Shown here: positions 6,001-9,000 of the stretch, piece by piece | Position numbering within the stretch: the first letter of the stretch is position 1 | Layout of the letters: each line of letters starts with the position of its first letter | Virus record (IMG/VR): IMGVR_UViG_2850790056_000003 | DNA from: a virus | Lineage: Duplodnaviria > Heunggongvirae > Uroviricota > Caudoviricetes | Direction: 5' to 3' (one strand) | Length of the DNA stretch: 16,924 nucleotides | Position numbers: made by a program

Positions 6001-9000
6001 TAGACCTGTGCAGACTGACAACGAGGACAATGAATGTTAACGCTGGCCATGAAAGAACCTCAAAAGCCCGCATTATACATCAGATTCAACTAATTAGAGG
6101 CATCACCCCTGAGTTTAACGGACACTCCTTCCTGAAATAGAATGGCATCAGAAGGAGCTAATAATGAGCAGAAAAACCCAACGTTACTCTAAAGAGTTCA
6201 AAGCCGAAGCTGTCAGAACGGTTCTTGAAAATCAACTTTCGATCAGTGAAGGCGCTTCCCGATTATCCCTTCCTGAAGGCACTTTAGGACAATGGGTTAC
6301 CGCCGCCAGAAAAGGGCTCGGTACTCCTGGTTCCCGCACGGTGGCTGAACTGGAATCTGAAATTCTGCAACTGCGTAAGGCGTTAAATGAAGCTCGCCTT
6401 GAGCGAGATATATTAAAAAAAACAACAGCGTATTTTGCACAGGAGTCGCTGAAAAATACGCGTGAATCGAACAATGGCGACAACAATTTCCCATTGAAGC
6501 GATGTGTCAGGTATTTGGTGTATCCAGGAGCGGTTATTACAACTGGGTACAGCATGAACCCTCAGACAGAAAACAAAGTGATGAGCGGCTAAAACTGGAG
6601 ATTAAGGTGGCACATATCCGCACTCGCGAAACATATGGAGCCCGGCGGCTCCAGACGGAGCTGGCAGAGAATGGCATCATCGTTGGTCGTGACCGACTGG
6701 CACGTCTTCGTAAGGAGCTAAGGCTACGCTGTAAGCAGAAACGCAAGTTCAGAGCGACTACGAACTCGAACCACAATCTGCCAGTTGCGCCAAATCTGCT
6801 GAACCAGACGTTCGCTCCTACAGCACCAAATCAGGTCTGGGTGGCGGACCTGACGTATGTTGCCACACAGGAGGGATGGTTGTACCTCGCTGGCATCAAA
6901 GATGTTTATACGTGCGAAATTGTCGGCTACGCCATGGGAGAGCGCATGACAAAAGAGCTGACAGGTAAAGCCCTGTTTATGGCGCTCAGGAGCCAGCGCC
7001 CACCTGCCGGGCTAATCCACCACTCTGATCGAGGTTCACAGTACTGCGCATACGATTACCGGGTCATACAGGAGCAGCTTGGTCTGAAAACATCAATGTC
7101 GCGTAAAGGTAACTGTTACGACAACGCTCCGATGGAAAGCTTCTGGGGAACGCTGAAAAATGAGAGCCTGAGCCACTATCGTTTTAATAACCGGGATGAA
7201 GCCATCTCAGTAATACGGGAATACATTGAGATTTTCTACAATCGTCAGCGTCGTCACTCTCGTCTGGGGAATATCTCCCCGGCAGCCTTCAGGGAAAAAT
7301 ATCATCATATGGCTGCTTAAAAAAAGAACAAATGGTAGTGTCCGCTATTGCCAGTACACCTCAGATATCGCCAACCAGATCCGAACTCCCCATGATGGAT
7401 GCGAGCTGCTCCTCGTTGTAATCCCGCCCAAATACGGTATTACTGGTTTTTACGCAAGCCAGATCAGGCATTGAGGGGGCAAAAAACTCGTAATCACTCA
7501 GATCACCACGCTGGATAAGCTCACGAATCGTTGTAGGCTTGATCAGGCATTCGTAGTACTTGCCCATCCAGGCCGCGAACGGGGTACCGGAAAGCCCAAG
7601 AACCCTGATGTCTTTGTCCCGGATAACCTCAAGTAACGCACGGCGCTTCATGTGTGCTTCATCGATGATCAGCAGATCGATATTGTCAGGGAACGCACGG
7701 CGCTTCATGTGTGCTTCATCGATGATCAGCAGATCGATATTGTCAGGGAACTCACGACGGATCAGCGTGTCAGCGCTGGCAATCTGAATCAGTCGTGACG
7801 GGTCATAGTTAGGGTGATCACGCCATACAAAACTGATTTCTTCCCACGGCAAACCGTATTCGGTGAAACGCTCTGCTGTCTGGTTCAGCAGGATTGTGTA
7901 CGGGCAAACGAACATCACCCGCATACCACGTTCAACCATTCCGGCTGTGACGAATGCTGCAAGACCAGTTTTTCCAGAGCCAGTGAGTGCGTACATCAGG
8001 TACGTGCGATGCTGTTTCCACTCGTGCCGCAGCTGGTTTAAACCGCGCTCCTGTGCAAAGTTTGGGGTGATTTTCAGCATGACGCCCCCTTGCTACGTGG
8101 TTTACCCGTTGCCGGGATCACGTCGATCTCATCACTAACGTATTGTTCAGGATTTCGTGAGCAGCGCAGAAGCACGATACCAGGAATGCCGTATAGCTTG
8201 AGTCTGCGCAGTTTCAGTATTGAACGTGCCCGTGGTGATGCTCTGTCCACCTCGATCGCGCACCGTTCACCAGATGGGGCAACGGCCACGATATCGACGA
8301 ATCCGCGCTTACCGTTGCCCATATCAACCAGATAATTACGTTCGATCGCCAGTCCGGCATCACGCAATTTGGCAGCCAGCACATAATCAAACGTGACCTT
8401 GTCTTTTCCGGTGTAGAATTGGTTTCCGAGCAGGCTGACAACCACATTTTTGATGAACGCGGTACTATTTCTACTGTGATAGTTGGCGTGATAATAATTT
8501 CACAAGAAACCATCCCGCCATATACAGTGATCTACCTAACCTATGGAGCTGTCTTTCTGGTAGTGCCCTTACGGGCACGGATGTTACAGATCTGCCCCCT
8601 TACCCCCTTCTTAGTAAAATTTCAGACAAAATAATTTCACATACAATTATTTCTCAAGAAACAATACCTTACTGAGGTTTTACTCCTTCCGTATCGCTAC
8701 TGGCGAAATCATCCAGCCACGGCTGGCTCTCGCGTACTTCTGGACATACACCCGTAACCGGGTGTTGGCGCTCCGTCTTGCCCTGTTGCCCTTCCTGAAC
8801 GATACAGGCTCCTTGTACCACTCTTCCTGGTACACTCTCGCGTACTCTGCTGCAATTTTTACCCGGGTGGTCGGGTCCAGTTGTAACAATTGCTCCTGTA
8901 TCCAGTCCCGATCAGCATCGCTGTACTGATCGGGCATAACCGTTTTGATTTGCCTGTTCACTCACACCTCCGGTGCGCTGTGTGTCCAGGATTAATCATC

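Follow-up and report, generated by a model that had tools for sequence, protein, structure and literature searches.

Insertion sequences (ISs) of the IS3 family make their functional transposase as a fusion protein, OrfAB (PMC3219604). IS911, IS2, IS150 and IS600 (IS3 family, IS3 group) share two overlapping open reading frames (ORFs), a slippery heptamer made of lysine codons, a downstream RNA structure and a fusion that serves as the transposase. IS600 departs from the other three in its heptamer, which is A_AAA_AAA and not A_AAA_AAG, and in having no Shine-Dalgarno-like stimulator upstream of it (PMC4066793). In the survey of Sharma et al. (2014; PMC4066793), IS600 (insM') appears as cluster A_AAA_AAA_1, which contains 517 genes, is marked 'true', and has a conserved downstream hairpin and no upstream Shine-Dalgarno-like element (Table S4); its values 86/385/100 give the codon of the motif and the sizes of the frameshifted and the normal product, and its frameshifting is called proven and stem-loop-stimulated on the basis of unpublished data. 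IS600 has also been reported as the most recently active IS of Shigella dysenteriae, whose genome is characterized by IS expansion and gene decay (PMC7373316). Here we analyze two inverted IS600 copies in a viral DNA stretch of 16,924 nucleotides (IMG/VR record IMGVR_UViG_2850790056_000003; hereafter the window). One of them, copy 2, carries a base change that removes the stop codon of orfA and creates another stop in the frame of orfB.

The window corresponds approximately to positions 3,943,878-3,960,801 of chromosome CP026782.1 (assembly GCA_002949815.1), as calculated from an offset of 3,837 bases relative to locus L002, and the setting of both copies is a degraded lambdoid, Stx-phage-like prophage, a remnant in S. 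dysenteriae.

One base in two overlapping frames

A repeat search of the window yielded a single long inverted pair (2470-3734 and 6108-7372, ~99% complementary), which represents the two IS600 copies. As a reference we used the complete element of an E. coli Stx2a prophage (L001), annotated in RefSeq as 'IS3-like element IS600 family transposase, programmed frameshift'. Both copies have in common with IS600 the orfA/orfB layout of the IS3 family (two consecutive overlapping ORFs, with orfB in the -1 frame of orfA), the A_AAA_AAA heptamer, the hairpin and the end sequences. In the part that they share, copy 1 and copy 2 differ at nine IS positions (182, 323, 365, 541, 675, 844, 888, 979, and 1209); the differences at 675 and 888 are synonymous, while the encoded proteins differ at two residues of OrfA (P40T and A87T) and at four residues of OrfB (T/A, C/R, F/L, and Q/H). 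These residue counts match those of the original prediction, made from the sequence alone, which had also spoken of a one-nucleotide difference between the copies. The latter holds insofar as both frame effects described below come from one base, but that base is not the sole difference, being one of nine.

The base in question is IS position 365, which is T in copy 1 (window 3378, in the minus-strand reading) and G in copy 2 (window 6464). This position serves two frames, as the first base of the orfA stop and as the middle base of a leucine codon of OrfAB. Three-frame translation of copy 2 indicates that, in the orfA frame, the G turns TAA (6464-6466) into GAA and extends OrfA from 100 to 142 amino acids (aa), while in the -1 frame it turns TTA into TGA in the place of Leu-101 of OrfAB. 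The two effects are opposite, one stop being removed and another created by the same change, and two of the three substitutions possible at IS position 365 (G or A) abolish the orfA stop and create the -1 stop. The translations and the ORF list bear out what had been predicted for both copies, i.e., the stop loss and the 142-codon OrfA of copy 2, the TGA between its A-run and orfB, and in copy 1 an OrfA of 100 aa ended by TAA together with an open -1 frame.

The position of the frameshift is known from the literature cited above. Since a TGA at 6400-6402 blocks the -1 frame and the normal end of orfA is at 6464-6466, a productive shift must fall between these two points, and A_AAA_AAA is the sole in-frame X_XXY_YYZ heptamer inside this overlap. 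The proviso attached to the original prediction, namely that the true frameshift site might lie downstream of 6465, is therefore excluded, every canonical shift occurring upstream of the TGA. Furthermore, the predicted 385-aa fusion, in which DILKK is followed directly by SNSVF, has an identical counterpart at NCBI under the name 'IS3-like element IS600 family transposase'. A junction of the other kind, in which DILKKA is followed by NSVF, was rejected because no such protein is present in the protein collection. The hairpin predicted downstream of the heptamer is likely the frameshift stimulator; its minimum free energy is -13.1 kcal/mol for copy 1 and -12.6 kcal/mol for copy 2, with a z of about -2. 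Damage to this hairpin by the change at 6464 was also considered and rejected, as 6461 is the last position of the 9-bp stem and the predicted energy shift is only 0.5 kcal/mol.

In copy 1 no stop separates the slippery site from orfB in the -1 frame, so that the 385-aa OrfAB can be made, whereas in copy 2 this frame is closed. Translation of copy 2 from the heptamer in the -1 frame gives 14 sense codons (NNSVFCTGVAEKYA) followed by the TGA, and a product of 100 aa; the early end foreseen for the frameshifted protein is thus confirmed. The Pfam matches in OrfAB are HTH_28/HTH_23 at residues 96-131, HTH_21 at 140-196, and rve at 220-318. With the exception of the first residues of the HTH_28/HTH_23 matches, all three regions lie downstream of the stop at codon 101.

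In our reading, the 385-aa OrfAB of IS600 is produced by a programmed -1 frameshift on A_AAA_AAA at codons 85-86, helped by the hairpin, after which the shifted ribosome has to pass through 14 codons of the -1 frame before it proceeds into orfB. On copy 2, where the 15th of these codons (Leu-101, TTA) is TGA, the shifted ribosome would instead release a 100-aa peptide lacking nearly all of the second helix-turn-helix and all of HTH_21 and of the DDE catalytic domain. Unshifted ribosomes would yield the 142-aa OrfA, given that the same base is the first of the orfA stop. Because OrfAB is the transposase in the IS3 family and the shifted product stops at 100 aa, copy 2 would make no transposase by the normal route.

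An IS1N insertion in the left inverted repeat

Copy 2 differs from the annotated IS600 in several respects. Besides the TGA in the -1 frame and the missing orfA stop at codon 101, it has a run of eight A residues (A8) instead of A7G at the slippery site, three private substitutions in OrfB, and an IS1N element inside its left inverted repeat. This IS1N, which had been overlooked in the first reading of the sequence, is located between positions 16 and 17 of the repeat. Its ends are GGTGATGC...GCATCACC, InsA and DDE_Tnp_IS1 genes are called within it, and a copy of IS600 positions 9-16 stands on either side of it as an 8-bp duplication (ACTGAGTT at 5334-5341 and CCTGAGTT at 6108-6115). The outermost 16 bp of copy 2 are found on the far side of IS1N, and a pattern search for this end gave two matches in the window, compared to 0.01 expected by chance. 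The terminal inverted repeats (5'-TG...CA-3') are contiguous with the element in copy 1 (TGAGGTAGCC...CACCTCA) but not in copy 2. The unique IS1N/IS600 junction, searched as a 29-mer, had no match in the species-representative genomes.

The ends of IS3-family elements are bipartite, with an inner part bound by protein and an outer catalytic part (PMC3219604). For this reason, we infer that the split left end would be disabled even in the presence of transposase supplied by other copies: independently of the stop codon, IS1N would part the terminal bases from the inner left repeat and thereby prevent their use, and the split of 766 bp should make the left end of copy 2 unusable. A promoter-like site upstream of orfA lies downstream of IS1N and is therefore retained; the consensus scan gave this one site, compared to 1.7 expected, which is no evidence of function.

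Overall, copy 2 is very probably a decaying, non-autonomous, IS1-interrupted IS600 copy that makes no OrfAB by the normal route. The suggestion that it is transposition-defective, originally put forward as probable, is supported by the stop in the -1 frame and strengthened by the IS1N in the left inverted repeat, which together would entail the loss of transposition. In this sense copy 2 is nothing out of the ordinary, a pseudogenised form of an insertion sequence already described, and the finding is already known in kind. Its annotation should read pseudogenised IS600 interrupted by IS1N, rather than active element, and copy 2 should not count as a transposase source in estimates of IS600 activity in S. 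dysenteriae; beyond annotation the significance is small.

Some points weigh against this conclusion. The G at 6464 rests on one assembly (CP026782.1, S. dysenteriae 08-3380). In addition, the orfB of copy 2 is an intact ORF of 272 codons whose DDE region is unchanged, so the decay would be recent and partial. A UGA followed by A permits readthrough at a low level, and a formal heptamer U_UUC_CCA occurs in the extended orfA frame (6487-6493), through which a trace of a variant fusion protein could conceivably be formed. Finally, the effect of splitting the left repeat is argued by analogy from the bipartite ends of the IS3 family.

Table 1. Positions in the window of the IS600 copies, their coding and frameshift features, and associated elements.
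Feature	Position	Strand	Remarks
IS600 copy 1	2479..3742	-	complete, 1264 bp; ends TGAGGTAG...CACCTCA; 99.5% identical to L001, end to end
orfA, copy 1	3376..3678	-	100 aa, TAA stop; Pfam HTH_Tnp_1
orfB, copy 1	2522..3340	-	272 aa, -1 frame relative to orfA; Pfam HTH_21, rve, rve_3, rve_2
Slippery heptamer A_AAA_AAA, copy 1	3421..3427	-	next base G (A7G)
Detached outer left inverted repeat, copy 2	5326..5341	+	16 bp, TGAGGTAGACTGAGTT; one mismatch, C>A at IS position 9
IS1N	5342..6107	-	766 bp; 99.7% identical to elements annotated IS1N in E. coli records
IS600 copy 2, main body	6108..7363	+	IS positions 9-1264; 99.4% identical to L001
Promoter-like site TTAACG-17-TAGAAT	6115..6143	+	upstream of orfA; consensus scan only
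orfA, copy 2	6164..6592	+	142 codons, stop lost, ends at 6590-6592; Pfam HTH_Tnp_1
orfA/orfB overlap	6403..6466	+	-1 frame opens after TGA 6400-6402; normal orfA stop 6464-6466
Slippery heptamer A_AAA_AAA, copy 2	6415..6421	+	orfA codons 85-86; base 6422 is A, not G, giving an A8 run (6415-6422)
Predicted hairpin	6428..6461	+	9-bp stem GCGUAUUUU/AAAAUACGC, begins 6 nucleotides past the heptamer
TGA in the -1 (orfB) frame	6463..6465	+	TTA to TGA by G at 6464; in place of Leu-101 of OrfAB
orfB, copy 2	6502..7320	+	272 aa, ORF intact, three private substitutions; Pfam HTH_21, rve, rve_3, rve_2
Truncated DEAD-box helicase ORF	7361-8080	-	contains a 57-bp duplication

Rarity, ancestry and recurrence of the alleles

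A search of species-representative genomes with a pattern accepting either base at IS position 365 returned 62 IS600 copies, of which S. flexneri SFBU1023 and E. coli ECMA0423 contributed the most. All 62 have T at this position, as does L001, which disposes of the concern that the reference IS600 might itself carry the G. Of 343 IS600-bearing plasmid records, 334 contain the exact 61-mer with T and none contains the corresponding 61-mer with G (1,137 places). Likewise, no exact full-length match to the 61-mer with G was found in 5,426 complete E. coli genomes (5,198 places); two E. coli records fall in the band of at least 99%, which we read as partial matches, outside the top of the ranking by coverage x identity. 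The protein collections give a similar picture. The exact 142-aa OrfA of copy 2 occurs on one contig only, CP026782.1, and the clusters of the 142-aa stop-loss OrfA and of the 100-aa OrfA have 6 and 1,099 members, respectively. The OrfB of copy 2 is not on record as a called gene in its 272-aa form, and its 237-aa form matched the source contig only. Exact IS600 sequence was also seen in short, low-coverage contigs of Streptomyces sp. UG1 (L043) and Rhizobium wenxiniae HU50 (L070), most likely as contamination from E. coli or Shigella.

With L001 and the sampled IS600 copies as outgroups, the changes at IS positions 323, 365, 541, 979, and 1209 are derived in copy 2, and those at 182, 675, 844, and 888 are derived in copy 1. 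Four of the copy 2 substitutions (365, 541, 979, and 1209) are private, i.e., missing from every other sampled copy. The OrfA of copy 1, which has P40 and bears the name IS600 ORF1 [Shigella dysenteriae Sd197], recurs as the exact protein on 35 contigs, and four accessions of S. dysenteriae (ABB60503.1 among them) are listed for it; therefore, copy 1 represents an allele present many times in this species.

The fifth derived change of copy 2, G323A, is the difference between 6422 and 3420 that produces the A8 run in place of A7G. It alters the base after the heptamer and leaves A_AAA_AAA itself unchanged. An A8 allele with an intact stop (100-aa OrfA, T87; P0068) is present on 22 contigs; it is seen at a number of different insertion sites as well as in IS-length contigs that have collapsed, as is typical of multi-copy elements, and the A8 allele also occurs on S. 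flexneri pINV plasmids; G365 and the other private changes of copy 2 are missing from all these copies. Several insertion sites elsewhere carry the A8 allele with an intact stop; the change to A8 is therefore probably harmless, and we rejected the run as a second disabling lesion. Copy 2 would thus descend from a minor A8 allele of IS600. As for the order of events, we infer that an A8 allele, still mobile or mobilisable, inserted here and afterwards accumulated the private substitutions, including T365G.

The A-run may vary in other elements as well. On plasmids LR861786.1, CP128221.1, and NZ_CP058683.1 (H114-H116), IS600 aligns to the 61-nucleotide slippery-site query over 62 nucleotides; this implies a length change of 1 nucleotide in or near the run, which could fuse orfA and orfB in frame.

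The change T365G itself is found outside the window. It is present in a full-length IS600 adjoining hrpA/azoR on the Shigella chromosome CP026765.1, in two assemblies (L003 and L004), and on pINV plasmids of S. dysenteriae in IS600-like remnants (L005-L009), which are truncated and 91-93% identical. The latter include a plasmid of the same strain, S. dysenteriae 08-3380, and end at IS position 588 or 749. Like copy 2, these elements encode a 142-aa OrfA and have the TGA in the -1 frame; unlike copy 2, they keep A7G, have no other private changes in common with it, and lie at unrelated loci. Most likely, the G arose independently in each lineage. Gene conversion from the pINV remnants of the same strain was considered as the source of the G in copy 2 and is unlikely, because these remnants differ 2 nucleotides away.

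In one alternative to decay, the 142-aa OrfA is a selected variant that acts in trans as a regulator or inhibitor of other IS600 copies. OrfA proteins of the IS3 family do modulate transposition, and the extended protein of copy 2 keeps the whole HTH_Tnp_1 domain (residues 3-75), but the 42 residues added to it are merely an out-of-frame reading of orfB. The promoter-like site is retained downstream of IS1N. The allele is confined to one contig. The same stop loss is found in at least two other IS600 lineages; however, the E101 stop loss is all that copy 2 has in common with the other 142-aa alleles, which differ from it at A87 and at two or more residues, and, with thousands of IS600 copies sequenced, we estimate that two or three recurrences would be expected by chance. 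We consider this alternative very improbable. The same applies to its broader version, in which IS position 365, having changed from T to G in three unrelated IS600 lineages, would be a recurrent and perhaps selected off-switch of IS600 that turns a transposase producer into a source of extended OrfA dampening the remaining copies; this, too, seems to us very doubtful.

A second alternative is that copy 2 still makes a working transposase, either by readthrough of the UGA after the canonical shift or by a -1 shift at U_UUC_CCA. Readthrough of this kind is possible at trace levels only. The heptamer at 6487-6493 is the only other in-frame X_XXY_YYZ heptamer in the orfA of copy 2, lying between the TGA and the new stop at 6590-6592, and no stop interrupts the -1 frame between 6466 and orfB, so that a shift there would join OrfA residues 1-109 to the PIEAMCQ segment of OrfB. 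However, the predicted fold places U_UUC_CCA within a hairpin and not upstream of one, and its frameshifting in the absence of a stimulator is 0.10%, among the lowest values quoted, as compared to 0.41% for A_AAA_AAA, which reaches 24.8% with a strong stimulator (Table S3, PMC4066793). The presence of the 142-aa allele on a single contig gives no sign of selection or spread, and a functional protein would still face a left end split by IS1N. A working transposase from copy 2 is thus most unlikely.

Finally, it is highly implausible that the true base at 6464 is T and that the G was introduced by mistake in the assembly or polishing of a multi-copy repeat. IS copies are indeed hard to polish, a single contig carries the exact 142-aa protein, and the plasmid of the same strain carries IS600-like remnants with G at this position. 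However, misassigned reads from these remnants would have imported their differences two bases away (GAG vs. GAA) and at other nearby sites, the three further private substitutions and the IS1N mark copy 2 as a distinct, diverged copy and not a mosaic, and the T-to-G change at another locus, for which there are two independent assemblies (L003 and L004), indicates that such alleles exist.

Flanks of the IS600 copies and neighboring features

The flanks of the two copies were compared at positions 2476-2478, 3743-3745, 5323-5325, and 7364-7366. No 3-bp target duplication is present at either copy, the flanks on the + strand being CTG/GTC for copy 1 and GTC/GAT for copy 2; this is no argument against membership of the IS3 family. 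A simple inversion between the two copies was rejected as an explanation, since the flanks are still unmatched after inversion. The unmatched flanks are consistent with later recombination between IS copies and suggest further IS-mediated rearrangements.

The inverted copies bracket a segment of 1.58 kb (3743-5325), which contains a DUF1737 gene and Stx-phage-like fragments. Regardless of the coding state of copy 2, homologous recombination between the two IS600 copies could invert this segment.

The prophage itself includes cro and cI-like genes, genes for an Eco57I-type methylase and a BsuBI/PstI-type endonuclease, a rha-like gene, a truncated DEAD-box helicase gene and several insertion sequences. 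There is no stx gene in the window, and a tRNA scan of the window found no tRNA gene. Two of the prophage genes are associated with tandem repeats. Directly upstream of the ribosome-binding site and start codon of the rha-like gene (AAGGAGG-N8-ATG, 13453), thirteen perfect tandem ACCAATC heptamers occupy positions 13347-13437, whereas the corresponding place in L001 holds only about two (TATCAATCACCAATC); the array is a simple-sequence expansion beside the ribosome-binding site. Within the truncated helicase ORF, a 57-bp tandem duplication of 2.1 copies (7635-7756; 98% matching), corresponding to 19 codons and thus in frame, is present as a single copy in L001. Finally, to the left of IS600 copy 1 and beside the suf operon, the region 289-1811 contains Mom, Com (zinc-ribbon), and resolvase/invertase domain genes, and looks like the remnant of a Mu- or P1-like module.

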